DNA of 64,000 bases, taken from a virus. Its lineage: Duplodnaviria > Heunggongvirae > Uroviricota > Caudoviricetes. Made by a program: the position numbers and the translations under genes. Of the stretch, positions 9,161-61,255 are shown one piece after another; within the stretch, counting starts at the first letter, position 1, and each line of letters starts with the position of its first letter. Location of the stretch: the IMG/VR virus record IMGVR_UViG_3300034283_001314; one strand, written 5' to 3'. The notes below the pieces were generated by a model. The model worked only from the letters and a program-made list of their open reading frames with translations. It did not search any database and was not told the origin of the DNA.

Positions 9161-9169
9161 ATTATAAAC

Positions 9170-10453: not shown

Positions 10454-10460
10454 AAACAAA

Positions 10461-10487
10461 GGGGGACAGAAATGTTCCCCTTTTTTT
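10461..10487 (+). terminator. rho-independent terminator
   Basis: GGGGGACA-gaaa-TGTTCCCC followed by T7. Confidence 0.65.
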
Positions 10488-10519
10488 GTTAATCACATTA
10501 TTTATTAGTATATTTAAGT

Positions 10520-11257: not shown

Positions 11258-11259
11258 TT

Positions 11260-14417: not shown

Positions 14418-14474
14418 AATAACCCAAAAATAGGGTAATATATTACAAAAAATCGTAATATTAACCCATTTTCA

Positions 14475-14590
14475 CAACTCATTGATTATCAACAAGTTAT
14501 AACTTATTGGTTTTCAATGGGTTATCTATGTCTATTAGATTTTTTTTATATATGAAAAAAACATATGCGTAACTGATTGATCCTCAATAA
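14475..14590. repeat. dyad operator-like repeat cassette (nearly identical to 22093-22205)
   Basis: 'aactcattgattatcaacaagttataacttattggttttcaatgggttat' plus 'gcgtaactgattgatcctcaat', about 50 nt of which are shared nearly verbatim with the cassette at 22.1 kb. Confidence 0.6.
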
Positions 14591-14619
14591 AAACTTTTAA
14601 AAATAGTTCAAAAATAGCA

Positions 14620-35850: not shown

Positions 35851-36111
35851 ATGATTAACCTAAATGAAATAATTAATGGTTGGGCAAATGTTATTAAAGA
35901 TAGAATAGGAACATTGGACCCGAATATAAAACAAATGGCAGAGAATAGATTGATATTATGTAATTCTTGTCATATGAGAATAGGGAATAGTTGTAGCACT
36001 AAAAATGTTGGAATAAACGAAATAACAAAAAAAGAAACAAACGGATGTGGATGTAATATATCTGCAAAAACTTTAAGTCCGGATAGTAAGTGCCCATTGA
36101 GTAAGTGGTAA
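35851..36111 (+). CDS. six-Cys small protein (paralog of 49828-50112)
   Basis: 'CNSCH...CS', 'GCGC' and a C-terminal 'CPLSKW'. The N-terminus 'EIINGWANVI' matches 'EIIGAWVISF' of the paralog. Confidence 0.45.
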   Translation: MINLNEIINGWANVIKDRIGTLDPNIKQMAENRLILCNSCHMRIGNSCSTKNVGINEITKKETNGCGCNISAKTLSPDSKCPLSKW

Positions 36112-44777: not shown

Positions 44778-44778
44778 T

Positions 44779-45456
44779 ATGGAAAATAAACAAACACTAT
44801 GGATATTTGGAGATTCTTTTTCTACTCCATTTAATGATAACACATTAGGTACTTGGGATGGAGATTATTGTAAATGGAAAGGATATGTTCCTAAATACTT
44901 TGGTGATATTATAGCAAAAGAATTAGAAGTAAATATACAACACTTTGGATATGGTGGCTCGGATAACGATACTATATTTGAAAGTATAATAAAACAAGCT
45001 CCTAAAATTAATAAAGGAGATTTAGTTATCATTGGTTGGTCCTCCATAGGTAGATTTAGATTAGTAAATAGGGAAAATAAATTCCAAACCGTTATACCTA
45101 GTTTTATTGATAAGTCATTGACCTGGTTTGATACCATTTCTAAATCTACAATAGAAGAGATATTAGTAAATAGAGATCATTATTTGTATAAAAAAGAATT
45201 ATATACAAAACTAGAGTTTTTAAATTTTTTATTTAATGATATGAAGTTAATACAATGGACTCCATTTAATTATGATGGAACTAAGATATTAGGATTTAAA
45301 GATATAAATACTATAATGATAGAAACTAATGGAGAATTAAAGGATGGACACTATTCCGAAATTGGACATATAGAGGTTTCTAAAAAGTTTATCACTATGT
45401 TTAATGATGATAAATTGAGAAATGATTCTAATAGATTATATATGCACTTAATCTAA
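44779..45456 (+). CDS. SGNH/GDSL-family hydrolase
   Basis: 'LWIFGDSFSTPF' (GDS block I) and 'DGHYSEIGHIEV' (block V). Confidence 0.55.
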   Translation: MENKQTLWIFGDSFSTPFNDNTLGTWDGDYCKWKGYVPKYFGDIIAKELEVNIQHFGYGGSDNDTIFESIIKQAPKINKGDLVIIGWSSIGRFRLVNRENKFQTVIPSFIDKSLTWFDTISKSTIEEILVNRDHYLYKKELYTKLEFLNFLFNDMKLIQWTPFNYDGTKILGFKDINTIMIETNGELKDGHYSEIGHIEVSKKFITMFNDDKLRNDSNRLYMHLI

Positions 45457-45548
45457 TATTGCCGTTATTTCATCCCACTCTCTTTTCCCCTATATTATTT
45501 TTTTATTTCAGTTTATTATCGTATATTAGTAGTATAAACTTAAACGAT

Positions 45549-46286
45549 ATGAATATAAAGGAATTCTCTCAGCCAACAATTCTTAAAGGTACTCAATACG
45601 GAATAACCGTTACAATCGAATTAAACCATAGTGATACTTCTATTGACGAAGTTATGGATGGTATGTTAACGATTGTAAAAGGTTTAGGGTATTTAGATAC
45701 TACCGTTAATGAATGGATTAAACAAAAGGCTAAGGATGTATATGATGATGAACACCAAATCGTTAAGGATGCTTTCGCTGAAGATTGGTTTGATGTGTTT
45801 AACGATGATGAAGATTACCCCGGACAATTTAAGGATTGGGAAAATGAAACACCTACCGAAGAAGAACTACCGACGGAATGTTGGTGTGGTAGTACCGATA
45901 GATGTGATTGTATAAGTGACCCTAATGATAATGATGAGTATGATGATTTTGTAGATTCTAATTGGGATGAAGAAAGAATTGATATCATTGGTCAAAATGG
46001 TAATGAAGGTACACATTATGGTTTGGCTACCGATGAAGATATTGAAGAATGTGAATTGAACGATAAACCACACTTTGATTGGAATGATGATGTAGATATC
46101 ATTTGGTTTGATGAAGATGAGTTTGATGATTATGGAATGAGAAAAATACCAAATGATAAACTCAAAGCCGCCGCACAACGATATAGTGACGAGGTGAAGG
46201 CAAAACATAAACCCGTTAAATTAGATAAGAGCAAGGTAGTAAGAGGAAAGATTAAAGACTTGAAAAATGGAAAAACCAAAGATTAA
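45549..46286 (+). CDS. acidic hypothetical protein
   Basis: The ATG at 45549 is used because the track start at 45459 is TTG. The protein is D/E-rich and contains 'CWCGSTDRCDC'. Confidence 0.45.
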   Translation: MNIKEFSQPTILKGTQYGITVTIELNHSDTSIDEVMDGMLTIVKGLGYLDTTVNEWIKQKAKDVYDDEHQIVKDAFAEDWFDVFNDDEDYPGQFKDWENETPTEEELPTECWCGSTDRCDCISDPNDNDEYDDFVDSNWDEERIDIIGQNGNEGTHYGLATDEDIEECELNDKPHFDWNDDVDIIWFDEDEFDDYGMRKIPNDKLKAAAQRYSDEVKAKHKPVKLDKSKVVRGKIKDLKNGKTKD

Positions 46287-46761
46287 AAAAACTAAACAAC
46301 AATTATTAAACGAACAATACATAATACCTACTTTATCTAATTATTGGATGAATGGATATGGTTCACTACAATATAGAGATAAAAATGGAAAAACTCAATA
46401 TTGTAAAAAGGTAGATGGTAAAAGTGGATTTGTTTGGATATATAAAGATGGTGAAAGAAAAGAATTTAATGTTCACCAATGGGCCGTTCAATTAATAGAA
46501 GGATTTTCCGAAGTAGCCGTTAAAAGGGATGTAAAGAATATACTTACATCTATTTACGATACTAATGTAGATGGTAGTGATAAGAGAAGAAAAGATGGAG
46601 TAGATAAAGGAGTAATGTCATCATTTAAATCACCCATTTTGGAAACAAAACCATTATCCGAATTACTAAATAAGAAAAAAGAAGAAGAAAAAAGATTGGC
46701 TGAATTAGAAGCTAAGTTAGTTTTTAAACCTAAAAATAAAAAAAGCAAAAAACGACATTAA
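46267..46761 (+). CDS. hypothetical protein with basic C-terminus
   Basis: ATG ORF. Confidence 0.5.
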   Translation: MEKPKIKKTKQQLLNEQYIIPTLSNYWMNGYGSLQYRDKNGKTQYCKKVDGKSGFVWIYKDGERKEFNVHQWAVQLIEGFSEVAVKRDVKNILTSIYDTNVDGSDKRRKDGVDKGVMSSFKSPILETKPLSELLNKKKEEEKRLAELEAKLVFKPKNKKSKKRH

Positions 46762-46762
46762 T

Positions 46763-46790
46763 CCCCCCTAATTCCGCCCCATCCCCCCTT
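46763..46790 (-). other. C-rich island on the plus strand, giving a G-quadruplex-capable sequence on the minus strand
   Basis: CCCCCCtaattCCgCCCCatCCCCCCC. Its reverse complement shares GGGGCGG with the island at 37.1 kb. Confidence 0.5.
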
Positions 46791-46804
46791 AAATTAAAAT
46801 AGTT

Positions 46805-47080
46805 ATGTTTGGAAATTTAATACCAACCCCACCACCAATTAGTAAACCAACATTAACATATTTACTACCTAAGCCAATCTTTGTGATGAGGTTTAGAAAT
46901 TCTATGAGTGATGGTGAGTTTAGATATACACAAGAACAAATACACAAATCGGATATGGCAAAGGAGTATCATATCATTGTGATTAAAAATGATAAAGATA
47001 AGGATGAGTTTGAAATGTTTAATACAGAGAAGGTAGAGAGACAGGAATGGAATAAGTTAATAAATAAAATAATTAAATAG
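46805..47080 (+). CDS. hypothetical protein
   Basis: ATG ORF. Confidence 0.45.
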   Translation: MFGNLIPTPPPISKPTLTYLLPKPIFVMRFRNSMSDGEFRYTQEQIHKSDMAKEYHIIVIKNDKDKDEFEMFNTEKVERQEWNKLINKIIK

Positions 47081-47081
47081 T

Positions 47082-48227
47082 TTGAATAAGATATTTGTAC
47101 AATCATCGGATACTTTAGATTTTACTCTATTGGGTGAATACTTTGATATTATTCCTTGCTACGAATATACTAACCCATATACACCCTTTATTGAGTTTGG
47201 TATAGATAATGGTGATGTTCTATTTCTGCACCAAGCATCCATAGAATCTGTCTATCCTTACATACCTAAAGATAAAGTGATAACTATCTATTGTTTTGAG
47301 TTTCATGAGATAATCTATCCCCACGTTAAAGAAAGGTTTAAAGAGTTATATTCCGATACACTAGCCCAATTATTTTTTATATCTACCGATTTGGAGATGG
47401 GTAAGTATGATTTAGGGTTTAAGTATACACTACCTGCATTTAGAAACTTGTTTAACATTCAACCTACACATAATACCGAAAGAAGTGTTAAGTATACCTT
47501 ATTTAACCAAAGTGTAAATTTTCGTAGGTTAAAGGTATTTGAATTACTTAAACGGTCTAACTTTGTAAAATCAATAGATTCAGCGGTTTCATTTGGTATG
47601 GTGTATATGAGTGTTCAGTTTGATGAAGTAAAGGGAATTAGAGATTACCTTGCAGCAAGAATAGATCAATTGAAATTTAAGGTTAAAGGAGTTGATATTG
47701 ATATTGATTACATAGAATCGTTTTCAAATGAATTTAACTTATTTGGATTTAATAGAGATACCATAAAAGAAGATATACAACATGGTGAACCAATTTATCT
47801 ACAATTAGATTCAGTAAATAAAATATCAAATGATTCATACATATCTTTTATTATTGAGAGTTGTGATGGTTCGTTTATAGATACGAGAATTACCGAAAAA
47901 ACTTTAAGAGCTATTTATTATAAGAATATATTTTTAGTTTTACAAAATGATAATATACACTCTCTTTTAAGAGATATTGGATTTAAAACATTTGAGGATA
48001 TATTTTATCTTAATGATGATTGGGATAAAATAAATGAAAATTATAAAATAGGTACATTTACCAAATGGATAAATTATATAAATGAATTATCAATTGAAAA
48101 GGTAAACGAACTTTATAATAGAGAGGATGTTCAACAAAGATTAGAACACAATTATAATTTATTATGTGAATTATTTAAAACACATAATTTAACAAATAAA
48201 ATAATATTAACAAATAAAACAAAATAA
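47082..48227 (+). CDS. putative glycosyltransferase, fucosyltransferase-like (GT10-type motif); apparent TTG start
   Basis: 'FIIESCDGSFIDTRITEKTLRAIYYKNIFL'. It is a paralog of 26690-27814, with conserved N-termini that force the TTG start at 47082. Confidence 0.45.
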   Translation: MNKIFVQSSDTLDFTLLGEYFDIIPCYEYTNPYTPFIEFGIDNGDVLFLHQASIESVYPYIPKDKVITIYCFEFHEIIYPHVKERFKELYSDTLAQLFFISTDLEMGKYDLGFKYTLPAFRNLFNIQPTHNTERSVKYTLFNQSVNFRRLKVFELLKRSNFVKSIDSAVSFGMVYMSVQFDEVKGIRDYLAARIDQLKFKVKGVDIDIDYIESFSNEFNLFGFNRDTIKEDIQHGEPIYLQLDSVNKISNDSYISFIIESCDGSFIDTRITEKTLRAIYYKNIFLVLQNDNIHSLLRDIGFKTFEDIFYLNDDWDKINENYKIGTFTKWINYINELSIEKVNELYNREDVQQRLEHNYNLLCELFKTHNLTNKIILTNKTK

Positions 48228-49827: not shown

Positions 49828-50112
49828 ATGAATAAAATAAGAGAAATAATAGGTGCATGGGTAATATCATTTAATCCTTCGCCTGAACAAAAAGAATTAG
49901 CAGAAAAACGATATGAGATATGTTTAGGATGTGAACATTATGGAAAAAAGAGACGAATTACACAAGATGAATATTGTAAACAATGTTTATGTTCTATTCA
50001 AAAAAAAGTATTTACAGAAAAAACAAAAGAATCATGTCCATTAAATAAATGGTCTGACATAGATAGTACATATATAGACACTATAAATAAAAAATCAAAA
50101 TCAATAATTTAG
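49828..50112 (+). CDS. six-Cys small protein (paralog of 35851-36111)
   Basis: 'CLGCEH', 'CKQCLC' and a C-terminal 'CPLNKW'. Confidence 0.45.
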   Translation: MNKIREIIGAWVISFNPSPEQKELAEKRYEICLGCEHYGKKRRITQDEYCKQCLCSIQKKVFTEKTKESCPLNKWSDIDSTYIDTINKKSKSII

Positions 50113-50158
50113 TATTATTTAGTAAATACGTATATTTATATAAAAGAAATAAAAAACT

Positions 50159-51685
50159 ATGAAGGCACTTATACTTGGAACCGATTTCTTAAAAGATTCG
50201 GAAGGAAACTTAAAAATAATTGAAACAAATACCAATGTTGATGTTCATAATCAAATTACAGAAGAACTTGATTGGGTTACATTTAAACAATTTTTAATAG
50301 ATAATTCTATTAATAATTTACATTTCATTTACACAGAGGGTAATTTCATTATAAATGAGAATATAGTTGATCGTAAAAATCCTGAATTTCCAAAGACTTC
50401 TTTAAAAGATAAAATGTCGGAAATCATGGAGGAGTTAAACGGAACATTCCAAATCCATATGCTTCCGAACGGTTCTGTTACCGTTCCACTTATTGAGGAT
50501 AATGATAATACTTTAATAATTAGAACATCGTATGATGCTACCGCAATTGTAGATGAAGAATATACTAAAGATAAGGTTAATTTTCATAGATTGATATCTA
50601 ATGAAACATATTCTACAAATTTTTATTATAGTTCATCTACTGATACAGAATTAAATATTGATAGACTAACCGATTTACATACAACAACCGGAAACGCTCC
50701 CAATTATATTGTAAAAACAAGATTACCACATAATGGGTATAATGTATATCCAAAATTTTACAAAATAGAATCTTTAGAAGATTTAGCAACATTGAAAAAT
50801 TCGGTTACCGATTTGGAATTTATTGAAGAATATCATCTAAATTCTGAAAATTTTGTAAATGAGAAAATTGGGGTAATTAGAAGTTTAGATATTTTATATG
50901 GTGGTAATTTAAGTTGTTTACATTTGGGCTCATATACGATGACTGCCGGTATTAAAAATAATCAATTTGAAACCACATATGATGAAACTGGTTTAATGAA
51001 TGCAGAAGGTAGAATTTTATGGATGACTAAGAATACAGATAGTATGTTATATTCAAAAAATTATATATTAGATGATGATACACCATTGTTATATCCTGAT
51101 AATGTACTAAAATCACCAAATGAAATTTTGGTAGGAGACACAATAAAAACTATCAAATTTGATTGGATTCCTGAAGATGAGGGTACAATTGATAACCCAA
51201 CATATCAGCCAAATGTTAACTCAGGTAGTTACAACACAGATTTAACAACATTCACAACCGGGTCAACTGAGGTGGTACATATAAGTGATACAATCAGAAA
51301 TACTGTAATGATTAGAGTTACATTAGAAAATGGTATAGTATATGAAGATTTACCAACATCTGTTATGTATATTGAAGAACATGATACATTAAGAACTACT
51401 TTTTCAGATACAAATAGATTTAGAGTAAATGACTCAATTGTATTTTATGATAGTAATAATACACTTATTAAATCTAAAATTACAAATTTAGAAATTGTTT
51501 ACGTTAATAGAAAAGTTTATGATTTAAACGTAGAACCAAGTGATATATATTTGAGTTTAGCCGATTCTACATTAGGATTATTTTTTGTACAACACAACGC
51601 ATGTTCTGCATTTTGTTATGGTGGATGCTTCCCCGCATACTATTGTGGTGGTTGTCCAAACTGTGAACAAGGATTTAAACTATAA
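50159..51685 (+). CDS. large hypothetical protein with Cys-rich C-terminus (possible fibre or receptor-binding protein)
   Basis: 508 aa. The C-terminus 'CSAFCYGGCFPAYYCGGCPNCEQG' has 6 Cys in 24 aa. Confidence 0.5.
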   Translation: MKALILGTDFLKDSEGNLKIIETNTNVDVHNQITEELDWVTFKQFLIDNSINNLHFIYTEGNFIINENIVDRKNPEFPKTSLKDKMSEIMEELNGTFQIHMLPNGSVTVPLIEDNDNTLIIRTSYDATAIVDEEYTKDKVNFHRLISNETYSTNFYYSSSTDTELNIDRLTDLHTTTGNAPNYIVKTRLPHNGYNVYPKFYKIESLEDLATLKNSVTDLEFIEEYHLNSENFVNEKIGVIRSLDILYGGNLSCLHLGSYTMTAGIKNNQFETTYDETGLMNAEGRILWMTKNTDSMLYSKNYILDDDTPLLYPDNVLKSPNEILVGDTIKTIKFDWIPEDEGTIDNPTYQPNVNSGSYNTDLTTFTTGSTEVVHISDTIRNTVMIRVTLENGIVYEDLPTSVMYIEEHDTLRTTFSDTNRFRVNDSIVFYDSNNTLIKSKITNLEIVYVNRKVYDLNVEPSDIYLSLADSTLGLFFVQHNACSAFCYGGCFPAYYCGGCPNCEQGFKL

Positions 51686-51712
51686 TTAAATAATTTATTT
51701 AAAAATAAAAAT

Positions 51713-51829
51713 ATGAAACCAAGAATAATTAAAAGTGAAATTGTTATAACTAACACAACCACAGACACAAACATAGCAACTATTATGCAAGAAGTTGCAA
51801 ATCTTATATATGTAGATGTAACACAATAA
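51713..51829 (+). CDS. small hypothetical protein (38 aa)
   Basis: ATG ORF between genes. Confidence 0.25.
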   Translation: MKPRIIKSEIVITNTTTDTNIATIMQEVANLIYVDVTQ

Positions 51830-51833
51830 TATT

Positions 51834-52658
51834 ATGAAACTATTTACCTTTGGTGATAGTTGGACGGAAGGTGTGGGTGGAAATCTAACCGAAGAATATG
51901 TTACGGATATACCAGAAGAAAGAACAATAATACGACAAAAATATTGTTGGCCAAAACACTTATCAGAGTTATTGAAGTGTGAAGTGCAAAATTATGGAGT
52001 GGGTGCTTTTTCAAATAATACAATATTTAATTCAATCTGTCACCAATTAAAAAATGAAATCATCACTAAAGATGATTTTGTTGTTATTATGTGGAGTTCA
52101 TCTTTGAGAGACAATTTACCATTTTTCCCAAACGAAGATTCTTTTCATATCTGGGGGGAGCGATATAAAAGTAAACAACATCTAATTAAATATATTTTTG
52201 ATGGTATTACTAGTAATAATATAAACTATAATAGAGCAGAAAAAGATTTTAGAGAATATTATATAACTAATTTGTTTAGTGATTCCTACTATAATATTAT
52301 AAATCAAAACTATATATTACATTTACAATTTATATTTAAACAAATGGGAATACAATATCTTTTTTGTGATGCATTTGATAATATGATTGGTAAAACTGTA
52401 ATTAGTGAAATTGATAATAGTAATTTAATTGATAATAGTAGATATTGGGGATTCAAAGAAAAAACATTTGCAGACTTTTTGATTGATTTAAAAAGGAGAG
52501 ATGTTTGGGAAGATAATAATTATTGGAGTCAATCGACATCTGGTAAACACCCAAGTAATAATGGATATCAGTTAATTGCGGAAGAATTATATAAATTTAT
52601 ATTAAATTCAAATTTACTGAAAAACGTTATGTGTAAAGATAAAAATTATTTAATATGA
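51834..52658 (+). CDS. SGNH/GDSL-family hydrolase
   Basis: 'LFTFGDSWTEGVGG' (GDSxxxG block I) and 'GKHPSNNGYQLIA' (block V). Confidence 0.55.
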   Translation: MKLFTFGDSWTEGVGGNLTEEYVTDIPEERTIIRQKYCWPKHLSELLKCEVQNYGVGAFSNNTIFNSICHQLKNEIITKDDFVVIMWSSSLRDNLPFFPNEDSFHIWGERYKSKQHLIKYIFDGITSNNINYNRAEKDFREYYITNLFSDSYYNIINQNYILHLQFIFKQMGIQYLFCDAFDNMIGKTVISEIDNSNLIDNSRYWGFKEKTFADFLIDLKRRDVWEDNNYWSQSTSGKHPSNNGYQLIAEELYKFILNSNLLKNVMCKDKNYLI

Positions 52659-53203
52659 TGGAATTTTCTATAAACAATTTTTTTTCAAAAGAAGAATGTA
52701 AATCTATTATAGAAATTGCCGATGCCATTGGTGTTAAATTTTCATATAATCCAAATGAAGTATGGGATTGTAAACGAATTTATGATGACAAATTCAAAGA
52801 AAATATTTTAAATAAACTAAAAACGAATTACCAAAATAATAATTTTAAATTGTGGTTTGATTTGAATGAATTTAAAATAAATGATGTTAATATTAGTTTG
52901 ACCAAATATTATGATAATAGATGGTTAGATTTACATTTAGATAGGATGTCTCAATTAACAACAGTTATAGTCCTTTCCGATGAATTTGATGACGGTAGAT
53001 TTGTATTATCTCCCAATAATGGTGATATTAATACAGCCGAAAAATATAATTTGCAAATTGGAGATGGTATTTCGTTTGATGGTAGTAAAGTATATCATGG
53101 TGTATTACCTGTTCATACAGGTATAAGATATGCTTTAAATATATGGATGACAAATACCGATTTTGAATATAAACCTTTAAAAATCAATAAAAGCATAATA
53201 TAA
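52655..53203 (+). CDS. 2OG-Fe(II) oxygenase (P4H-like small form)
   Basis: 'LHLDRM' (HxD), 'KVYHGV' (distal His) and 'GIRYALNIW' (Arg). Confidence 0.55.
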   Translation: MMEFSINNFFSKEECKSIIEIADAIGVKFSYNPNEVWDCKRIYDDKFKENILNKLKTNYQNNNFKLWFDLNEFKINDVNISLTKYYDNRWLDLHLDRMSQLTTVIVLSDEFDDGRFVLSPNNGDINTAEKYNLQIGDGISFDGSKVYHGVLPVHTGIRYALNIWMTNTDFEYKPLKINKSII

Positions 53204-53212
53204 AATATCACA

Positions 53213-53836
53213 ATGAAACCAAACATTTATATATGTGGAGATAGTTTTGTAGATTGGGATTTACCCGAAGTACATTGGACAGATTATTTATCTAATCATT
53301 ATAATGTTATTAAATTAGGAAAGTTTGGTTCGGATAATCATTCTATAATTTATCAAACGGGAAATATTCCAAACTATATAGATGGTGATAGACTTATAAT
53401 TGTATTTACGGCACCTGGTAGATTTCCAAGAAGATATTTTGGTGAACGTGATATAAATCATAATATAAAATATTTAAATTGGGAATGGTATAAAGATAAA
53501 TCTTTTGCAAAAAAACTATTAGATTTAAGAATATCAGAAACACAAAATTGGTTAGATGGAAATAGAGATAATGAAATATTATTTATTAAAAAATTAAAAT
53601 ATTTTTATGAAAATTATGAACCAATATTTGTAACATGGAATGATGATTTTTATGAAAAAACAAAAGAGTTTGTAGAATTAATAAAAGTAACTTCTATATC
53701 AGATGAAGGTGGTGACCCGATAGATTGGCATCCTGGACGGGTTGGGTGTTATGATTTTTATCTTAAACTACATAAATTTCTAAACATAGAAGAATCAATT
53801 ATAGAATTTGAAAATAAAAAAAATAAACTTATATGA
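53213..53836 (+). CDS. SGNH/GDSL-family hydrolase
   Basis: 'IYICGDSFVDW' (GDS) and 'IDWHPGRVG' (DxHP). Confidence 0.5.
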   Translation: MKPNIYICGDSFVDWDLPEVHWTDYLSNHYNVIKLGKFGSDNHSIIYQTGNIPNYIDGDRLIIVFTAPGRFPRRYFGERDINHNIKYLNWEWYKDKSFAKKLLDLRISETQNWLDGNRDNEILFIKKLKYFYENYEPIFVTWNDDFYEKTKEFVELIKVTSISDEGGDPIDWHPGRVGCYDFYLKLHKFLNIEESIIEFENKKNKLI

Positions 53837-54351
53837 AATTATCAATAGAAGATTTGATTTTTTTAAAATCCGAATTAAGTGTTACTAGAATAATGAATGA
53901 GGAAGACTTGGCGTATATAAAAGCATCTCACCCTCAATTATATTTTGCAACCCATCTTAAAAAAGATGAAGGGGTCTCTCTTTTTCCAAATAATAGTTGG
54001 GTTTATACTTTGGAAAATAAAAATTTAAATGAATTTATTTGTAATAAATTTGAAGAACCTATTGATAATTTATACATAATACATAGATTAATATATGGTG
54101 AAAATGGTTATGCTAAAAAACATAAAGATAGATTTACAACACATAAAACAATTAGTATTTTATTATCATCCGATTTTACCGGTGGGGAAATGTATATAAA
54201 TGATGAAGATGTGTCATTAACAAATGAAGGAGATTATGTTGTATTTAATGGTGGGAATGAATCACATGAAGTAAAAAAGATAATTAGTGGGGAGCGAGAT
54301 GTATTGATAATATGGTTTTCCAAAAAGAAAGCAAAATTTAGTATTATATGA
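53833..54351 (+). CDS. 2OG-Fe(II) oxygenase (P4H-like small form)
   Basis: 'KHKDRF' (HxD), 'ESHEV' and 'GERDVLIIWF'. Confidence 0.55.
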   Translation: MKLSIEDLIFLKSELSVTRIMNEEDLAYIKASHPQLYFATHLKKDEGVSLFPNNSWVYTLENKNLNEFICNKFEEPIDNLYIIHRLIYGENGYAKKHKDRFTTHKTISILLSSDFTGGEMYINDEDVSLTNEGDYVVFNGGNESHEVKKIISGERDVLIIWFSKKKAKFSII

Positions 54352-55010
54352 GAATTGCAATAGTGTGTAATGGTAGGAGTGGTTCCACATCAACGTTTTA
54401 TTATTTAAAGTGTTGTTTAGCTAGAGAACGTAAAAAATATGATTCTTTCTTTGAACCATTTAATTTTATAAATCCAGATAGAGAGGATACATACAACCAA
54501 CTAAAAACAATTGATGAAATAATAAATAAAAAAAACATATTAATAAAAACATTTATAGATAGTGATAATTACCCATATGAATCTTTTAAAAGTGTAGAAG
54601 ATTATTGGGAATGGTTTTATTCATTTTTTGATAAAATAATAGTATTAGAAAGAAAAAATAAAAGATTACAAGCCGAATCACTGGCCTATCATATTAGAAT
54701 ATCTAAAAATAAAACACCTTTACAAACTTGGCATACACAAAAATATTATGAATTAACAGAGGATGATGAGGATGCTGTAATAAAACTAACACATCATTTA
54801 GAATCAGAATCATTAGTGTTAAAATTTATTTCAGATAAAGGGTATCCACTATTTTATTATGAGGATATATTTGTTAATAAAGATATTGAAACGATAAAAC
54901 GTTTAAACGAATATTGTGAAATAGCATATAGTCAAATATGTATTGATGAGTGGATAAATTCTCCATATAAAAAAGTAAGAATAGAAGAAAAGTCAACTAA
55001 ATTAATATAA
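54348..55010 (+). CDS. sulfotransferase-like P-loop protein
   Basis: N-terminal 'IAIVCNGRSGSTSTFYYL' resembles the RSGST PAPS-binding loop of Sulfotransfer_3/NodH-type enzymes. Confidence 0.35.
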   Translation: MRIAIVCNGRSGSTSTFYYLKCCLARERKKYDSFFEPFNFINPDREDTYNQLKTIDEIINKKNILIKTFIDSDNYPYESFKSVEDYWEWFYSFFDKIIVLERKNKRLQAESLAYHIRISKNKTPLQTWHTQKYYELTEDDEDAVIKLTHHLESESLVLKFISDKGYPLFYYEDIFVNKDIETIKRLNEYCEIAYSQICIDEWINSPYKKVRIEEKSTKLI

Positions 55011-56074
55011 TGATAGATTTAAAACAATATGTTTGTACGGTTCCGTTTGAGGCATTAGAAATACATGAAAATAAAAATTTTATGTGTTGTGCAAGTTGGT
55101 TAAAAAAAGAATTACCCAATGGGGTTCCCATAAAAGAATTATGGAATTCAGATGAAGCAATTGAAATACGAAAATCTGTAATGGATGGTTCTTATCGTTA
55201 TTGTGATAAAACACAATGTCCATTTTTAGCTAGATTAATATCATTAAATAAAAGTATTTCCGGGCCAGTTATCCACATAGATAATTTGAGTGATGAAATG
55301 AAAACAAATTACGATAGACAAACTGGTATAATTCCAAATGGACCTAAAATAATTCAAATGTCATTCGATAGAACTTGTAATTATAAATGTCCATCATGTA
55401 GGGTTAATATGATTGTTGCAAATAGTGATAAAATAAAAAGTGTAAATCTTACAATAGAAGAAATAGAAAATGCATACTCCGATTCAATTGAAACAATTTA
55501 TTGTTCTGGAACAGCTGATCCATTTGCATCTGTTTCATATAGAAATTTTTTAAGAAATTTTAATCCAAAAAAATATCCAAATTTAAAATCAATCCATCTA
55601 CATACAAACGCCAGTTTGTGGAATGAAGAAATGTGGGATAGTATGCCAAATATACATAAATATGTTCACAGTTGTGAAATTAGTATTGATGCTGGTACTC
55701 AATATACTTACGAAAATGTAACAAGGTTGGGAGGCAATTGGGATAATCTGATCTCAAATTTAAATTTTATTTCAACTATAAAATCTTTACATAGTGTTAA
55801 ATGTTCTTTTGTCGCCCAACAATCAAATTATAATGAAATGGAAACATTTTTAAATTTAATATATTCTATATTCAAAAATAAAACTAAAGTCTTTTTTGGT
55901 AGGATAACAAATTGGGGAACATTTAGTGATGGTCAATTTAAATTAATTGATGTTGGTAATGATACACATCCAGAACATAAATTATTTTTAAAACAATTTA
56001 AAAAAGTTGCAACCAATCCATATGTTTTTCATAATATGTATGAATTAATTGATATGAAAAAAACATTACTATAA
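55010..56074 (+). CDS. radical SAM enzyme
   Basis: 'SFDRTCNYKCPSCR' matches the CxxxCxxC motif. The N-terminal region has additional Cys residues. Confidence 0.6.
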   Translation: MIDLKQYVCTVPFEALEIHENKNFMCCASWLKKELPNGVPIKELWNSDEAIEIRKSVMDGSYRYCDKTQCPFLARLISLNKSISGPVIHIDNLSDEMKTNYDRQTGIIPNGPKIIQMSFDRTCNYKCPSCRVNMIVANSDKIKSVNLTIEEIENAYSDSIETIYCSGTADPFASVSYRNFLRNFNPKKYPNLKSIHLHTNASLWNEEMWDSMPNIHKYVHSCEISIDAGTQYTYENVTRLGGNWDNLISNLNFISTIKSLHSVKCSFVAQQSNYNEMETFLNLIYSIFKNKTKVFFGRITNWGTFSDGQFKLIDVGNDTHPEHKLFLKQFKKVATNPYVFHNMYELIDMKKTLL

Positions 56075-56571
56075 TGGTGATTACACAAAATGTTTTATTT
56101 ACAAAATTAGAATGTGATTCTATAATTTGGCAAAATACAGATGTAACAAATTGGAATAAAAATGATAGAAAATATAAATCAATTTTATTAGAGTATTCAG
56201 ATGATACTGAATGGATCTTTTTAAAATTGAAAAATTTTGTTGAAGAATCAACAAATATAAAAATTACTAATTTAAAAAAGGTAATACATTTTCATAAATT
56301 TAATGAGATGGATTGGTTTGATAAACATAATGATGATAAAGATAATAGAATTTATGCAGTTGGTGTTTTGTTAAATAATGACTTTAAAGGTGGTGATTTT
56401 AAATTATATAATCCAGATGAAATAATATTAGATAAAGTTATTGGTAACACTTATACATTTGATGTAAGAATTGAACACGAAATAACACCTATACTTAAAG
56501 GAGAGCGATATTCATTACTTTGGTTTTTACAAAAAGAACATATTAAATTTAATACAAATAAATTATTATAA
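56074..56571 (+). CDS. 2OG-Fe(II) oxygenase (P4H-like small form)
   Basis: 'KHNDD' (HxD), 'RIEHEI' and 'GERYSLLWF'. Confidence 0.55.
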   Translation: MVITQNVLFTKLECDSIIWQNTDVTNWNKNDRKYKSILLEYSDDTEWIFLKLKNFVEESTNIKITNLKKVIHFHKFNEMDWFDKHNDDKDNRIYAVGVLLNNDFKGGDFKLYNPDEIILDKVIGNTYTFDVRIEHEITPILKGERYSLLWFLQKEHIKFNTNKLL

Positions 56572-56596
56572 CTAATTGATAATCAACAAGTTAGGA
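56568..56596. repeat. dyad operator-like repeat (single copy)
   Basis: 'ataactaattgataatcaacaagttagg'. Confidence 0.5.
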
Positions 56597-56613
56597 AAAA
56601 TACCCCAAAATAG

Positions 56614-56643
56614 TTGGTAAATTGAGAAAAAAGTCGTATCTTT
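56614..56643 (+). promoter_or_regulatory. Bacteroidetes-type promoter (GTCGTATCTTTA class)
   Basis: TTG at 56614-56616 and TATCTTTA at 56636-56643. Confidence 0.5.
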
Positions 56644-56668
56644 AAGTATAAACATTAAACTCTAAGAT

Positions 56669-57289
56669 ATGAAATTTTTATCCTTTTTAGGTATAATTCT
56701 AATACTTTCTAGTTGTGAAAAAAACGTAAGTGTTCCACCTACATTCACTCAACCCACATTTTCTTTTTCAATTGATTCGGCGTTAGTTGGTAATGGTACA
56801 AAGGCATTATCCAAAGATAAAAACGGATATTATCATTTACTAGTAGATACTAATTTATTACAAACATTCTCAAGAGTTACAGGTAAAGTTTTAGTAAATG
56901 GTAAACCAAACCCATTAGCACCCACTTTAGTTGAAAATGTTAGAGTAGAATGGAAAAGTTCACATTATTGGATATTGAATGTAGGACAACAAACTATAAG
57001 TGTATATAAAACATATTTCAACAAATATCAGGCAAAACTAAAAACCGTATTATTAGGTATTATGGTTGCACAACGAAGTGAGATTATTCCGACAGTAAAT
57101 CCAACATCATATCCATCAACTGAAACGGGTGAAGTAAATACCATAGTTGCACCAATTACTCTAATGAAAGGTGATACACTAATAATTACCGGCAAAGCAT
57201 TTTTCTCATATGCAGTTCCTAAAGATAAACTTTTTAGTACACCTAAATTAGATTCGATAGAAAAATCGATTCAAATAATTTGTGATTAG
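56669..57289 (+). CDS. lipoprotein
   Basis: 'MKFLSFLGIILILSSCEK' is a signal peptide with a lipobox. Confidence 0.55.
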   Translation: MKFLSFLGIILILSSCEKNVSVPPTFTQPTFSFSIDSALVGNGTKALSKDKNGYYHLLVDTNLLQTFSRVTGKVLVNGKPNPLAPTLVENVRVEWKSSHYWILNVGQQTISVYKTYFNKYQAKLKTVLLGIMVAQRSEIIPTVNPTSYPSTETGEVNTIVAPITLMKGDTLIITGKAFFSYAVPKDKLFSTPKLDSIEKSIQIICD

Positions 57290-57313: not shown

Positions 57314-57613
57314 ATGATAACAATGCCACAAACACCTATTACGGATTACTCATTTAAAAAGTGGGGAGCTATAAAGATAGAAGAAACGGATGAAATTGAA
57401 CCATATTATTATTGGATTTTACCAATACCAATTGATGAGAATATACCCGATAGACCTACCTTAATATCTACTACGAATGATGAGTGGAAGATAATGGAAA
57501 TTAAAAAAGGTCAATATTTGGTAACACTATTTGATACTTTACCAATGTTAGAAACAGAAGAAGAAATTGAACTTTTATATAAAATATTAACTAAAGAAAA
57601 TTTAACGAAATGA
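57314..57613 (+). CDS. hypothetical protein
   Basis: ATG ORF. Confidence 0.5.
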   Translation: MITMPQTPITDYSFKKWGAIKIEETDEIEPYYYWILPIPIDENIPDRPTLISTTNDEWKIMEIKKGQYLVTLFDTLPMLETEEEIELLYKILTKENLTK

Positions 57614-58251
57614 TTTACAACGAAGATTGTTTAGATACACTTAATCGTAACTTAGAATACGATTACATTATAACATCACCACCTGATTTTGATGAGATTG
57701 GTGCAGATACTAAAAACATACAACCCTATATTTCTTTCTTAAAAGAAAGATTTAGTTTATTTAATCCTAAAAATAATGTAGTAACTATATTTGTTTCGGA
57801 TAGAAAGGCAGAAGGAACGGTCATTCAAAAACATAATATTATTTGTAGTATTATGAGTGATAATGGTTGGGTACTTAAATCACAAAAAATATGGGTAAAA
57901 AAGGAAGATACAATTGATATGTTCAGACATGGATATACATTTATTTTAACGTTTGGTAGAAATAATTCAAAACACCCATTATTACCCGATGTATTTAGTG
58001 AAAAATTTGTACCTGCTACACCTGAATATACTTATAATTTTTCACCTAATATTGTAAAACAATTTATTGAAAAATATACAAATAAAAATGAAATTGTGTT
58101 TGACCCGTTTATGGGTAGTGGAACTACGGCAATTGTATGTGTAGAACATAATAGAAAATATGTAGGTAGTGAAATTATTGAGGTAACCTGTAAGATTGCA
58201 GAAAATAGAATAAGTAAAATAAATAACGCAGATAAATTTTTTAAACTATAA
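57610..58251 (+). CDS. SAM-dependent amino-methyltransferase (N6A/N4C beta-class architecture) with atypical motif IV
   Basis: N-terminal 'YNEDCLDTL...DYIITSPPDF' is motif IV-like, reading SPPD instead of (D/N/S)PP(Y/F). C-terminal 'VFDPFMGSGTTAIVC' is motif I. Confidence 0.55.
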   Translation: MIYNEDCLDTLNRNLEYDYIITSPPDFDEIGADTKNIQPYISFLKERFSLFNPKNNVVTIFVSDRKAEGTVIQKHNIICSIMSDNGWVLKSQKIWVKKEDTIDMFRHGYTFILTFGRNNSKHPLLPDVFSEKFVPATPEYTYNFSPNIVKQFIEKYTNKNEIVFDPFMGSGTTAIVCVEHNRKYVGSEIIEVTCKIAENRISKINNADKFFKL

Positions 58252-58254
58252 ATT

Positions 58255-58962
58255 ATGACACAAAGAAAAAAGACAGCAGAAGAAATTAAAGCAAATTACG
58301 ATAAGTTTATTGCTATACTTAAAAAGTATTTTAAAGGAGACAGATTGGATAAATTACTTCATATGTATTCGGAAAACGAATTAGGTATGAATTTAGCAAT
58401 GTCTCCGGCAAGTGGTAGATTATTATATCACAATTGTTATGATGGGGGATATATTGACCATATTTTTAATGTATGTAAGAATGCATTGAAGATGAAAGAA
58501 TTATTTGTAGCACAGGGTGGTACAATTGATTTTGAAGATGAAGAATTAATGTTTTCGGCATTACATCACGATTTAGGTAAATTAGGTATTAAAGGACAAG
58601 TACATTATGTACCTAATACAAATAAATGGGAAATAGATAATAGAATGGATTACTATAAAAGAAATGATGAAATACCATTTATGACGATTACCGATAGAAC
58701 TTTCTTTACATTGAACCATTATGGAATTCAATATACAGAAAACGAATACTTTGGTATTAAACTTACCGATGGGTTATATGATGAAGATAATGAAAAATAT
58801 TTAAAGACATTTAATGTTAAGAATACATTACGTTCATCTATTCAATATATTTTACATTGGGGAGATTTTATGAGTACAATTATAGAAAGACAAGAAGAAT
58901 TGAAACTACAAGATAAGTCACAAAAAACTGACACGTTTTCACTTAATTTGGGTAAATTCTAA
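58255..58962 (+). CDS. HD-domain phosphohydrolase
   Basis: 'SALHHDLGKLG' matches the HD motif. Confidence 0.55.
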   Translation: MTQRKKTAEEIKANYDKFIAILKKYFKGDRLDKLLHMYSENELGMNLAMSPASGRLLYHNCYDGGYIDHIFNVCKNALKMKELFVAQGGTIDFEDEELMFSALHHDLGKLGIKGQVHYVPNTNKWEIDNRMDYYKRNDEIPFMTITDRTFFTLNHYGIQYTENEYFGIKLTDGLYDEDNEKYLKTFNVKNTLRSSIQYILHWGDFMSTIIERQEELKLQDKSQKTDTFSLNLGKF

Positions 58963-59038
58963 CAAAGTGTCAGTTTAACCATAATGGTATAGTATTTGAA
59001 CTATATAGAATATTATTAACAAAACAAAACATTAAATT

Positions 59039-59419
59039 ATGTATTTAGTAGATTACAGCAAATTATTTGAAGATTTTTTTGAAACCCCAAAAACAAGAGC
59101 AGCTAGTTCAACTCACAAACAAGTAGTAGTTGATGTAAACGAAGATATTTTACGAATTGGATTGGCGGTTCCTGGTCAAACAAAAGAAACATTAGAAATT
59201 ACAATTGAGGAAAACTTTATTAAAGTAAAATCAATAGAAAAAGAAACCGATGATAAAATTTGGAATGCAATTGCACTTCCGGTTGATGAATCGTTAAACA
59301 TTGGAACTAATTGGGACCTTAGTGCTACATTAGCAACCGTAAAGGATGGTATATTACATATCTCCTTACCTAAGAAAGAAGAAAAGAAGCCAAAAAAAGT
59401 ATCCATTAAAGTTGGATAG
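59039..59419 (+). CDS. small heat-shock protein (Hsp20/alpha-crystallin family)
   Basis: 'ILRIGLAVPG...ATVKDGILHISLPKKE' matches the alpha-crystallin domain with its C-terminal G.L.I.LPK. Confidence 0.65.
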   Translation: MYLVDYSKLFEDFFETPKTRAASSTHKQVVVDVNEDILRIGLAVPGQTKETLEITIEENFIKVKSIEKETDDKIWNAIALPVDESLNIGTNWDLSATLATVKDGILHISLPKKEEKKPKKVSIKVG

Positions 59420-59442
59420 TTCAGTTATATTTCGTATCTTTA
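59412..59442 (+). promoter_or_regulatory. Bacteroidetes-type promoter-like motif (TCAGTTATATTTCGTATCTTTA, identical to 62508-62529)
   Basis: TTG at 59412-59414 and TATCTTTA at 59435-59442. Oddly, it lies upstream of a terminator hairpin. Confidence 0.35.
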
Positions 59443-59443
59443 A

Positions 59444-59472
59444 GGGTAGTCACAAAAGACTACCCTTTTTTT
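59444..59472 (+). terminator. rho-independent terminator-like hairpin
   Basis: GGGTAGTC-acaaaa-GACTACCC followed by T7, 4 nt before the next ATG. Confidence 0.5.
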
Positions 59473-59475
59473 ATT

Positions 59476-60378
59476 ATGGCAGAATACTCACAAATATTAC
59501 CTCTTAGAACCGATATAAAGGTAGTAGACCAATTTGGATTCTTACCCCTATCAATTAATAGACCTACCAAAGAATCGAAGCTAAAGTGGCACGATGCATA
59601 CCTTAATGATGGTTTAGATGAACAACGTCGTAGTGACACATCCGAATATTTACCTGGTTATACATTCTCCGAATTCCACGCTGGATTGGCAGAACAAGTA
59701 TATAGGTTTTGGAGTATGCAAGGTAGTAAGATAGTTGACCCATTTGCGGGTAGAGTAACAAGAGGATTTGTTGCAACTAAATTAGGTAGAGATTATACTG
59801 GATTCGAAATTTCACCAAAGACATGGGAAAGAACACATAAACATTTTGATGCACATAATGTTCATCCACACATAATTAATAGTGATGGAACTTTAATGGA
59901 GGAAATTTCAGATAAAACCGCAGATTTAGTTTTTACTTGTCCACCTTACTTTAATTTAGAAAAATACGAATCAGTTCCTGGTCAATTAAGTGATGAGAAT
60001 AGATATGAATCATTTATGAGTAAGATTGATGTTTGTATTTCAAATTGTTATAGAGTTCTTAAAAGTGGAGCATTTGCATGTTGGGTTGTAGGTGATTTAA
60101 GGACTGGTGGTGAGTTTCAAAACTTTCATGGTGATGTAATCAATTCGTTTAAGAAGCATGGCTTTAATCAGCACGATATAGTTATACTAGAAAATATCTC
60201 ACCATTTGCAGCATTACAAATTGGAAAAACCGCAGCTAAACGATACACATCAAAAGTACATGAATACCTTTTAGTATTCCGAAAACCAGGTGATTATGAA
60301 ATACCAAAATATTGTTCACCGGATGTAATGGAGCAAGAAAACAAATTAGCAGAATTCTTTAATTATGATAGAAAATAA
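59476..60378 (+). CDS. SAM-dependent methyltransferase (amino-MTase-like) with atypical motifs
   Basis: Motif I-like 'VDPFAGRVTRG' and motif IV-like 'VFTCPPYF' (CPPY). Confidence 0.5.
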   Translation: MAEYSQILPLRTDIKVVDQFGFLPLSINRPTKESKLKWHDAYLNDGLDEQRRSDTSEYLPGYTFSEFHAGLAEQVYRFWSMQGSKIVDPFAGRVTRGFVATKLGRDYTGFEISPKTWERTHKHFDAHNVHPHIINSDGTLMEEISDKTADLVFTCPPYFNLEKYESVPGQLSDENRYESFMSKIDVCISNCYRVLKSGAFACWVVGDLRTGGEFQNFHGDVINSFKKHGFNQHDIVILENISPFAALQIGKTAAKRYTSKVHEYLLVFRKPGDYEIPKYCSPDVMEQENKLAEFFNYDRK

Positions 60379-61255
60379 ATTTCATACAATTCATTTTACA
60401 GGATGTTCTTTTACCGAAGGTGGTGGATTTGAAGATGGAAAACAACAATTAAAATCCGAATATAAAAAGAAATATGGATTTTTATACAAAAATGAAAAGG
60501 ATGTTTCATATCCTTCACTTTTACAATCAAAACTTAATTTAAAGATTATAAACGATGCTAAGAGTGGTAGTGGTATAGAAAGAACTATTCGTAAAATATG
60601 GGAATATATAAGAAAGCATAAATTAGAGCATGTTAAAAAAACTTTATTTATATTAGAAATGGCAGAAGCTGTTTCTAGATTAGAAGTGTTCTCAAATAAA
60701 TACAATAAATATTTAGTAGCAAATGTAGTATACGATTATAAAACAGGTAAAATCACCGATACACAAACTACATTAAATTGGATATACGGACCACAAATGG
60801 ATGAAGAATATAGAGATAATACACGAGAAGTTATTAGAGAATATTCAACATTGTTTGTAAATCCATATGAATACGATAAGAAAATACAAAATGAAATATT
60901 AGGATTATTTAGTTTTTTTAAGATGCATGATATACATTTCTATTATAGTGGAAATGTTAGTTTCGTTGATAATTTTGCAAAAAGAATATACAATGATATT
61001 GAGGAAACTAATCGATTAAACTTAATAATAAATGGAAAACCATATTTTAATTTTTATGAATTAGCACATTCAAATTTAATAAGAATATCGGATGAAGTTG
61101 GATTAGATATATCTACTGATGGACATCCTGGTGTTCAGGCACATCAAATGTGGGCAGAAGGAATTTACAATTTTTTACAAAATAAGTATTTAGATGATAC
61201 TTATGAATTAGATTATAGACAAAACAAAATTATTTCAACAAAAAATATAATATGA
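60365..61255 (+). CDS. SGNH/GDSL-family hydrolase
   Basis: 'IHFTGCSFTEGGG' (block I) and 'STDGHPGVQAHQMWA' (DGHP block V). Confidence 0.55.
   Translation: MIENKFHTIHFTGCSFTEGGGFEDGKQQLKSEYKKKYGFLYKNEKDVSYPSLLQSKLNLKIINDAKSGSGIERTIRKIWEYIRKHKLEHVKKTLFILEMAEAVSRLEVFSNKYNKYLVANVVYDYKTGKITDTQTTLNWIYGPQMDEEYRDNTREVIREYSTLFVNPYEYDKKIQNEILGLFSFFKMHDIHFYYSGNVSFVDNFAKRIYNDIEETNRLNLIINGKPYFNFYELAHSNLIRISDEVGLDISTDGHPGVQAHQMWAEGIYNFLQNKYLDDTYELDYRQNKIISTKNII

Follow-up and report, generated by a model that had tools for sequence, protein, structure and literature searches.

The 64,000-nucleotide viral sequence analysed here (IMG/VR record IMGVR_UViG_3300034283_001314; hereafter the window) carries seven closely packed open reading frames (ORFs; g1-g7) on the plus strand at 51834-56571, exactly as stated in a preliminary description of this DNA. 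These genes appear to form the downstream arm of a module of tailoring enzymes that has a mosaic structure, occurs in uncultivated jumbo phages and is organised around an anchor gene predicted to encode an ATP-grasp-like domain, a Hint domain and a Cys-rich tail. The anchor gene, a small conserved ORF and a C-terminal tag common to all seven proteins were overlooked in the preliminary description. Tentatively, the function of the module is best interpreted as the tailoring of a Cys-rich peptide, released by the Hint domain, by tagged enzymes that hydroxylate and then decorate it. The genes concerned are as follows.

49828-50112, plus strand: E_94, small Cys-rich zinc-ribbon-like protein with a 19-amino-acid C-terminal extension ending KSKSII
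50159-51685, plus strand: anchor protein F_508 (508 amino acids), with predicted ATP-grasp-like (about 1-300) and Hint (about 305-480) parts and a six-Cys tail (481-508) ACSAFCYGGCFPAYYCGGCPNCEQGFKL
51713-51829, plus strand: small conserved ORF of 38 amino acids (45-47 in relatives), always located after the anchor and before the first SGNH gene
51834-52658, plus strand: g1, predicted SGNH/GDSL-fold protein of the DUF6071 family, ending KNYLI
52655-53203, plus strand: g2, predicted 2-oxoglutarate (2OG)-Fe(II) oxygenase of the prolyl 4-hydroxylase (P4H)/PKHD clade (H94, D96, H148, R158), ending NKSII
53213-53836, plus strand: g3, divergent SGNH-like protein of a rare family, ending KNKLI
53833-54351, plus strand: g4, predicted 2OG-Fe(II) oxygenase, ending KFSII
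54348-55010, plus strand: g5, minimal 220-amino-acid protein with a predicted sulfotransferase fold of the type using 3'-phosphoadenosine 5'-phosphosulfate (PAPS), ending STKLI
55010-56074, plus strand: g6, predicted radical S-adenosylmethionine (SAM) enzyme with an N-terminal twitch/SPASM-like auxiliary-cluster domain, ending KKTLL
56074-56571, plus strand: g7, third predicted 2OG-Fe(II) oxygenase, which closes the block, ending TNKLL

Neighbouring ORFs share four nucleotides (ATGA) at the g1/g2, g3/g4 and g4/g5 junctions and one (TAATG) at g5/g6 and g6/g7; a 9-nt gap separates g2 from g3, and a 97-nt spacer follows g7. The gene order is not a matter of chance, since the same genes are found in related orders on dozens of independent viral contigs, and the synteny around the anchor recurs across proteins that are only about 30% identical. 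In agreement with the earlier view of the block as a dedicated modification cassette, the genes act as one co-inherited unit. An anchor homologue precedes the cassette in every related locus with enough upstream flank. For the layout and the tag census, 77 non-identical related loci and 53 complete blocks were used. Upstream of the anchor the layout is 2OG oxygenase, FAD-halogenase-like, 2OG oxygenase, 2OG oxygenase, Sulfotransfer_2-like and E_94, and downstream it is small ORF, SGNH, 2OG oxygenase, sulfotransferase, radical SAM enzyme or an unknown 414-amino-acid protein, followed by further genes. At least 301 IMG/VR contigs, many of them 160-330 kb long, encode relatives of the anchor. The statement that such a cassette is not a described phage module is largely correct: in the 50,697 deposited phage genomes of INPHARED neither an anchor homologue nor a g6 homologue was found, and no DNA similarity to 50100-56700; a looser cyanophage cluster, discussed below, had already been described.

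The feature that unites the block most clearly is the tag. All seven proteins, as well as E_94, end in [KN]-x-x-[LI]-[LI]; this ending, with its two terminal aliphatic residues, is carried by 8 of the 8 block proteins versus 4 of the 114 other called ORFs of the window (Fisher p = 5e-10). In the relatives, 455 of 572 ORFs (80%) located no more than four genes from the anchor are tagged versus 41 of 238 at a distance of ten genes or more, the frequency in random internal 6-mers being 2.4%. The tagged proteins belong to many folds: several 2OG oxygenase families, FAD-halogenase-like proteins, two types of sulfotransferases, three types of SGNH proteins, the radical SAM enzyme, FkbM methyltransferase, DUF6734 and unknowns. 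The glycosyltransferases and methyltransferases adjoining the block are untagged, as are the cyanophage 2OG homologues. Within the tag, Ser is encoded by both AGY and TCN, Leu by six codons and Thr by varied codons, and in three of the eight tagged genes the end is not overlapped by the start of another gene. This codon variety and the presence of the tag without a downstream overlap show that it is selected at the protein level. The possibility that the tag is a by-product of start-codon overlap, or a DNA repeat or recombination site, was rejected on the same grounds and because other coupled genes of the window are untagged; the sole trace of the ATGA/TAATG overlaps is a bias of the last tag codon towards A-ending (ATA 76% vs 43%). 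In the structural model of g5 the predicted local distance difference test (pLDDT) score of the tag residues is below 50, consistent with the disorder expected of a short linear motif. No account of a C-terminal tag of this kind was found in the literature.

Two further observations concern these C-termini. An ORF of 296 amino acids at 60365-61255 (plus strand), which has no family match and is flanked by a DNA methyltransferase gene and an SbcC-like one, ends in TKNII and is one of the four tag-like cases outside the block. Untagged ORFs of about 70 amino acids ending in IKYGLK(K) occur among the tagged genes of several relatives (L025, 762-971 and 1592-1801; L026, 2003-2215; L008, 13309-13518); one ORF of this type matches DUF2061 in L027, and none was seen in the window.

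The anchor protein gave no sequence-level match in Pfam or PDB and nothing usable in the PHROG and NCBIfam scans. Its AlphaFold2 (AF2) model (pLDDT 83, predicted template modelling score (pTM) 0.79) splits into two parts, of which the N-terminal one is predicted to have an ATP-grasp acid-amine-ligase-like fold (GspS/YgiC-like) and the C-terminal one a Hint fold. The fusion of the two was not found in BFVD or PDB, and only partial Hint matches were obtained in BFVD. The Hint part ends in a penultimate His and a terminal Asn (H479-N480), invariant in 54 sequences, and thus retains the dyad required for C-terminal cleavage. There is no conserved Cys, Ser or Thr at its N-terminus (Y302-D305, a register set from sequence and secondary structure without superposition), the +1 residue after N480 is variable (A, S, G, P, Q), and a Cys is found at +2. 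The anchor as a splicing intein was rejected, since it has neither a position-1 nucleophile nor a Cys, Ser or Thr at +1.

The tail that follows is disordered and has a conserved framework of six Cys with variable residues between them, its non-Cys positions being 19-24% identical, as compared with 38-48% elsewhere in the protein. Self-cleaving modules can apparently bracket the tail in some homologues: P0217 and P0223 carry a canonical Cys1 Hint domain after it (Intein_splicing, 1.5e-10), and P0137 and P0178 a Peptidase_S74-like autocleaving domain, whose sub-threshold scores (E 0.14 and 0.02) make it a weak support.

Two small genes flank the anchor. E_94 matches PHROG 13558 (1.7e-8), and its homologue is located upstream of the anchor in 36 of the 53 complete blocks. 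It has a paralogue of 86 amino acids 14 kb upstream (35851-36111, plus strand; 27% identity, E 2e-7), which stops at CPLSKW, without the 19-amino-acid tagged extension. The small ORF on the other side is present in 17 of 17 distinct anchor-to-next-gene intergenic sequences, is annotated as a gene in public assemblies too, and is conserved at the protein level with the consensus M..R(V/I)ERP.Q.IK..I.PLS..LK.K.A.AFQ.VV.KIKEKHL(S), the clade of the window being very different. Its product may act as an additional substrate, or else as a chaperone or immunity factor.

The family guesses of the preliminary description were right for all seven genes, the two weakest, those on the second SGNH protein and the sulfotransferase-like one, needing profile and structure evidence. 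The oxygenases g2, g4 and g7 match PHROG 61, 2OG-Fe(II) oxygenase (1e-14, 3e-9 and 3e-10), and g4 also matches Pfam 2OG-FeII_Oxy_3 above the cut-off (1.6e-6). The HxD...H facial triad, on which the earlier assignment depended, is present: H94, D96, H148 and R158 (g2 numbering; H-x-D...H...R) are invariant in an alignment of 31 sequences, a basic residue of the Arg158 type being the binder of the 2OG C5 carboxylate. Compared with PDB, the profile of the oxygenases matches PKHD hydroxylase and prolyl 4-hydroxylases at 9e-13 to 1e-9 (PKHD 3dkq, 9e-13), as well as PiuC, the P4H of Bacillus, Chlamydomonas and PBCV-1, and procollagen lysyl hydroxylase (6ax6); Tet-like enzymes are only marginal (7e-4 or weaker) and AlkB is unmatched. 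The three enzymes, therefore, belong to the protein-hydroxylase (P4H/PKHD) clade.

Among the SGNH proteins, in which the expected Ser and His motifs are present, g1 matches Pfam DUF6071 (3e-7, 30.7 bits, cut-off 27) and falls just short of the Lipase_GDSL cut-off (1.7e-4, 22.3 bits, cut-off 23.6). Residues G7-D8-S9 (GDS), Asn61 and His239 are invariant in 16 homologues; unlike in the block V motif DxxH, there is no Asp three residues ahead of H239 (GKHP). The g3 protein had no direct match in Pfam, PHROG or NCBIfam scans, and its family comprises only 53 representative clusters among 1.84 billion proteins in an exhaustive search. The profile of this family aligns with that of g1 across blocks I-III (hhalign 97.9%, E 4e-13), retains GDS...GxSN...DxH with conserved G9, D10, S11, D171 and H173, and weakly matches the SGNH domain of the O-antigen acetyltransferase OafB; Lipase_GDSL is weakly matched by 3 of 37 family members. 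Thus, g3 is a real, very divergent SGNH protein.

For g5 there was no direct library match, and a single-sequence PDB search was uninformative. Its full-length homologues at 32-36% identity bear Pfam Sulfotransfer_1/_3, some of them being labelled NodH lipopolysaccharide (LPS) sulfotransferase by the Joint Genome Institute (JGI), and the family profile matches the CurM sulfotransferase (2e-3), with the RSGST loop aligned to the CurM loop. The loop R10-S-G12-S13-T14 as well as R102 and S111, invariant in 66 sequences, correspond to the PAPS 5'-phosphosulfate loop and the 3'-phosphate Arg...Ser motif. The AF2 model (pLDDT 89.6) has TPST2, SULT1B1, Stf0 and SULT1E1 as top Foldseek matches, with P-loop kinases ranking below; the scores are modest (E 5e-4 to 4e-3, template modelling (TM) score 0.36-0.57). 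On this basis g5 is predicted to have a PAPS-type sulfotransferase fold. No homologue of the relatives' kinase of adenosine 5'-phosphosulfate (APS) was found in the 64-kb window by tblastn, so PAPS would be derived from the host.

The CxxxCxxC motif and the extra N-terminal Cys-rich segment noticed earlier in g6 proved to be strictly conserved: the cysteines of CNYKCPSC (C123, C127, C130) and C9, C26, C27, C65 and C70 are invariant in 30 sequences. The protein does not reach the Pfam Radical_SAM cut-off (23 bits, cut-off 29.5), many of its close homologues carry precomputed Radical_SAM matches, and a single-sequence PDB search was uninformative. It resembles NCBIfam NF033640 (N_Twi_rSAM; 3.6e-14) over residues 7-288, with the same order of a Cys-rich twitch/SPASM-like domain and a CxxxCxxC core, as a distant relative and not a member, its 52.7 bits being far under the curated cut-off of 170. 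Bacterial g6 homologues carry Pfam SPASM at their N-termini.

The alternation of SGNH and 2OG genes was earlier taken as a sign of assembly by duplication, which was not borne out. The oxygenases are only 26-29% identical pairwise, and g1 and g3 do not detect each other in BLASTP; recent tandem duplication was thus rejected. Orthologues specific to each paralogue occur in other phages (44-89% identity for g1, 46-92% for g2 and 53-87% for g4; those of g7 are nearly identical in the closest relatives and 34-36% identical in other lineages), so that the paralogues are of old origin. In relatives, the downstream arm is most often SGNH-2OG-sulfotransferase-radical SAM, the g3-g4 pair is rare, and in other phages g4-type genes may precede or follow the radical SAM gene. 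Therefore, the alternating order resulted from cassette insertion and shuffling of old paralogues, in which the rare SGNH-2OG pair and an extra 2OG gene entered the common arm, rather than from local duplication.

Capture of a host LPS operon had been named earlier as the competing explanation for an intact cassette in a host genome. No intact cassette was found in one genome each of 185,579 bacterial and archaeal species by a scan with two peptide patterns, to which its sensitivity is limited. The scan gave four g6 homologues (32-37% identity), near which tblastn with all cassette proteins found no other cassette gene. Simple capture is thus not supported, and the cellular contexts of g6 homologues are of both peptide and glycan kinds. 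In Jeongeupia chitinilytica (L035; NZ_BMYO01000006, about 4500-14600) a cluster encodes a SelO-like protein, HlyC-type acyltransferase, two radical SAM enzymes with N-terminal SPASM, GT2, Methyltransf_24, HlyD and a Peptidase_C39-ABC exporter, and looks like a cluster for a glycosylated or acylated bacteriocin or other ribosomally synthesised and post-translationally modified peptide (RiPP). In a Bdellovibrio metagenome-assembled genome (MAG) (L033; 7303-12122) an 834-amino-acid protein with a C-terminal part homologous to g6 is located between two flagellin genes, which suggests a role in flagellin modification. The Eisenbacteria MAG L034 has Methyltransf_24, the radical SAM homologue and DUF6473-Sulfotransfer_3 in this order, and a gammaproteobacterial MAG has two radical SAM enzymes with an aminotransferase.

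Given its phage-type genes (ATP-dependent DNA ligase, N6/N4 DNA methyltransferases, UvdE and HD hydrolase) and its relatives among IMG/VR viral contigs of up to 334 kb, the window is a fragment of a jumbo phage. Nearly all long ORFs are on the plus strand of the window (1-64000), and GC skew stays positive along its whole length, the cumulative curve climbing steadily, which fits one direction of replication or transcription over at least 64 kb. Scans for sigma-70 promoters and terminators performed no better than on shuffled sequences in this AT-rich DNA (25-35% G+C). Pfam, PHROG and NCBIfam gave no glycosyltransferase match, and nothing usable, for the flanking ORFs at 42.5-49.8 kb and 56.7-61.3 kb. 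A possible outlying member of the block lies 5 kb upstream, among ORFs without family matches (43602-48227):

44779-45456, plus strand: third SGNH-like paralogue, ending YMHLI (a degenerate tag)

Its product is 41.7% identical to the tagged 223-amino-acid block protein of L012 and 30% to the N-terminus of g1. Downstream of the block (57610-60378, and 14030-19804 of L030) there are genes of two N6/N4 DNA methyltransferases, HD phosphohydrolase, HSP20, UvdE, NAD-dependent sugar epimerase/dehydratase and a NifU-like Fe-S scaffold, which could serve the clusters of the radical SAM enzyme. The fullest island, L027 (446-21059 of a 315-kb contig, NCBI JACCEA011465770), contains a carbamoyltransferase, a 145-amino-acid APS kinase, DUF2061 and a tagged block with FAD-halogenase-like and Sulfotransfer_2-like genes, followed by a 908-amino-acid GT1+FkbM fusion, Methyltransf_24, GT9 and GT2. 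The APS kinase implies that this phage supplies its own sulfate donor.

How might such a module operate? In the proposed peptide tailoring, the Hint domain, which lacks an N-terminal nucleophile and has a C-terminal His-Asn, would cut only at its C-terminal end via Asn cyclisation, freeing a peptide of about 28 residues with six Cys; the second self-cleaving module after the tail in some relatives fits tail excision. The tagged enzymes would then tailor the peptide either after its release or as long as it still forms the tail of the anchor. The P4H/PKHD-type oxygenases would put hydroxyl groups on the peptide, and the SGNH proteins (by O-acyl transfer or removal) and the sulfotransferase (by O-sulfation with host PAPS) would decorate them, a sequence of hydroxylation and decoration that would explain the alternating gene order. 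The twitch radical SAM enzyme may perform a radical step, such as a Cys-derived cross-link, epimerisation or C-methylation, and the ATP-grasp domain may activate a carboxylate, plausibly the tail C-terminus, for amide formation. The tag might act as a short linear motif through which one shared partner, perhaps the anchor, recruits the enzymes. In relatives with adjacent glycosyltransferases the product is perhaps also glycosylated, and a glycosylated peptide would reconcile the peptide and glycan interpretations. A peptide substrate is supported by the affinity of the oxygenase profile to PKHD, prolyl and lysyl hydroxylases, by the SPASM/twitch radical SAM domain and by the bacteriocin/RiPP-like context of the Jeongeupia homologues.

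Several points weigh against this interpretation. The substrate is deduced from context alone, and cleavage, modification and binding are all predictions. In the window no dedicated exporter or protease was found, and library scans of the block proteins gave no RiPP recognition element (RRE)-like domain. The variable +1 residue and the Cys at +2 form a non-canonical splice junction, and the Hint domain could be purely structural, with the tail being a zinc knuckle. The g6-type enzyme, found in only 10 of the 53 complete blocks, is accessory, and a link between tail Trp and the FAD-halogenase-like gene was dropped (Fisher p = 0.12, with counter-examples). Finally, SGNH proteins, NodH-like or Sulfotransfer_2-like sulfotransferases and FkbM methyltransferase suit glycan chemistry equally well.

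The main rival is glycan tailoring, which we consider somewhat unlikely. It supposes that the module decorates host LPS or capsule, or a flagellin-type or virion glycan, and the chemistry would consist of O-acetylation or de-acetylation by SGNH proteins, sulfation, hydroxylation, a sugar change by the radical SAM enzyme and amidation of a uronic acid by the ATP-grasp domain. Such a role accords with the carbamoyltransferase, APS kinase, GT1+FkbM, Methyltransf_24, GT9 and GT2 genes flanking the blocks of L027, L015 and L012, with Methyltransf_24 and the sugar epimerase/dehydratase just beyond the window end, and with the OafB and NodH likenesses of g3 and of the relatives of g5. The flagellin context in L033 and the Methyltransf_24 and Sulfotransfer_3 neighbours in L034 speak for glycans and against peptides as well, and decoration of the capsule was offered for the related cyanophage cluster by Iyer et al. 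2021 (PMC7824862). However, the adjacent glycosyltransferases and methyltransferases do not carry the tag that unites the block, and tblastn found no homologue of the relatives' glycosyltransferases, APS kinase, carbamoyltransferase or halogenase in the 64-kb window. The glycan hypothesis also has to accommodate oxygenases of the protein-hydroxylase clade, and leaves the invariant Hint-HisAsn-Cys6 architecture and the bracketing of the tail by self-cleaving domains unexplained.

The synthesis of a small-molecule metabolite from an amino acid or a sugar, which would be hydroxylated, sulfated or acylated, with the ATP-grasp domain as an amide-forming ligase, seems improbable. GspS/YgiC-like ATP-grasp enzymes do join small acids and amines, and the FAD-halogenase-like, carbamoyltransferase and methyltransferase genes of the relatives match the cluster of Iyer et al. 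2021 (PMC7824862), but no scaffold-forming enzyme (non-ribosomal peptide synthetase, polyketide synthase or cyclase) was seen, there would be no explanation for a ligase fused to Hint and a Cys-framework tail, and both the P4H-type oxygenases and the SPASM/twitch radical SAM enzymes speak for a polypeptide as the substrate. That the genes are a loose set of unrelated auxiliaries lying in a hypervariable island, without a common pathway, is very unlikely and already disfavoured: gene content does differ from phage to phage, and cyanophage islands likewise gather 2OG oxygenase genes, but translational coupling, the synteny around the anchor and a tag common to unrelated folds only within the block contradict it. 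A DNA or nucleotide hypermodification cassette, suggested by the two N6/N4 DNA methyltransferases and HD phosphohydrolase just downstream and by the label "DNA endonuclease" of PHROG 2297, which also matches the oxygenases, can hardly be credited, as the oxygenases group with P4H/PKHD and not with Tet-like enzymes or AlkB, the block has no hydroxymethyl-base kinase, glycosylase-fold transferase or nucleotide-metabolism gene, and the relatives' HD gene after the block is untagged.

Returning to peptide tailoring, a more far-reaching version of it, which is rather unlikely, is that these viruses carry a new ribosomal-peptide logic with a self-excising ATP-grasp-Hint precursor and K-x-x-L-I docking tags borne by the enzymes. 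The substrate would have no leader, and the tag would be a plug-and-play docking code that lets cassettes of interchangeable enzymes (hydroxylases, sulfotransferases, SGNH proteins, radical SAM, halogenase, methyltransferase) swap between phages.

If a tailored Cys-rich peptide or glycopeptide is made, the module would be a viral biosynthetic pathway widespread in at least 301 IMG/VR contigs and without a counterpart in cultured phages. The tag would be a directly testable case of enzyme recruitment across unrelated folds, with potential for reuse in engineering, and it is a simple bioinformatic handle that delimits the module better than homology. As a fusion with an intact C-terminal dyad that lacks the splicing nucleophiles, the anchor is a candidate for a natural precursor that releases its own peptide. 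If, instead, the glycan reading is true, the module would be among the richest phage-borne sets for sulfation, hydroxylation and acylation, which bears on surface remodelling by giant phages.

Among the phage modules described so far, the nearest is the "sugar- and amino acid-modification" cluster of 8-12 genes in cyanophages (S-SSM6a, P-SSM2), with halogenase, 2OG oxygenases, carbamoyltransferases and methyltransferases, for which a halogenated metabolite or capsule decoration was predicted (Iyer et al. 2021, PMC7824862). Both modules are phage-borne, variable and contain several 2OG-Fe(II) hydroxylases, L027 and other relatives of the window share enzyme types with that cluster, and its function is only predicted too. 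An ATP-grasp-Hint anchor, a radical SAM enzyme, a sulfotransferase, an SGNH protein and a tag are all absent from its description (PMC7824862). The most similar 2OG homologues of cyanophages are untagged and share about 30% identity with those of the window, and the window itself has neither the halogenase nor the carbamoyltransferase of the cyanophage cluster.

In the literature, no description of an ATP-grasp/Hint phage protein, of phage RiPP clusters or of an N-terminal SPASM radical SAM enzyme was found. Among cellular systems, Hedgehog, bacterial intein-like (BIL) and pretoxin-HINT proteins are autoprocessed by Hint domains; unlike them, the Hint domain of the anchor has no N-terminal Cys, Ser or Thr and no +1 nucleophile, its N-terminal partner is an ATP-grasp-like ligase, and it would release a Cys-framework peptide of about 28 amino acids, not a toxin domain. 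RiPP classes include Cys-rich peptides modified by SPASM radical SAM enzymes (SCIFF/ranthipeptides and sactipeptides) and the graspetides, which depend on ATP-grasp enzymes. The module resembles RiPP clusters in having an encoded Cys-rich peptide with a variable core and conserved flanks beside a SPASM/twitch radical SAM enzyme, an ATP-grasp domain and tailoring oxygenases. It differs in that the putative core lies at the C-terminal end of a 480-residue enzyme-Hint fusion instead of following a short leader, that its release is proposed to occur by Hint Asn cyclisation and not by a leader peptidase, with no RRE found, and that the recognition motif is apparently located on the enzymes and not on the substrate. 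Thus, the module might work by analogy with a RiPP cluster combined with release of the pretoxin-HINT kind, and it adds to the known phage tailoring clusters an ATP-grasp-Hint-Cys6 anchor, sulfotransferases, SGNH proteins, a twitch radical SAM enzyme and the C-terminal tag.

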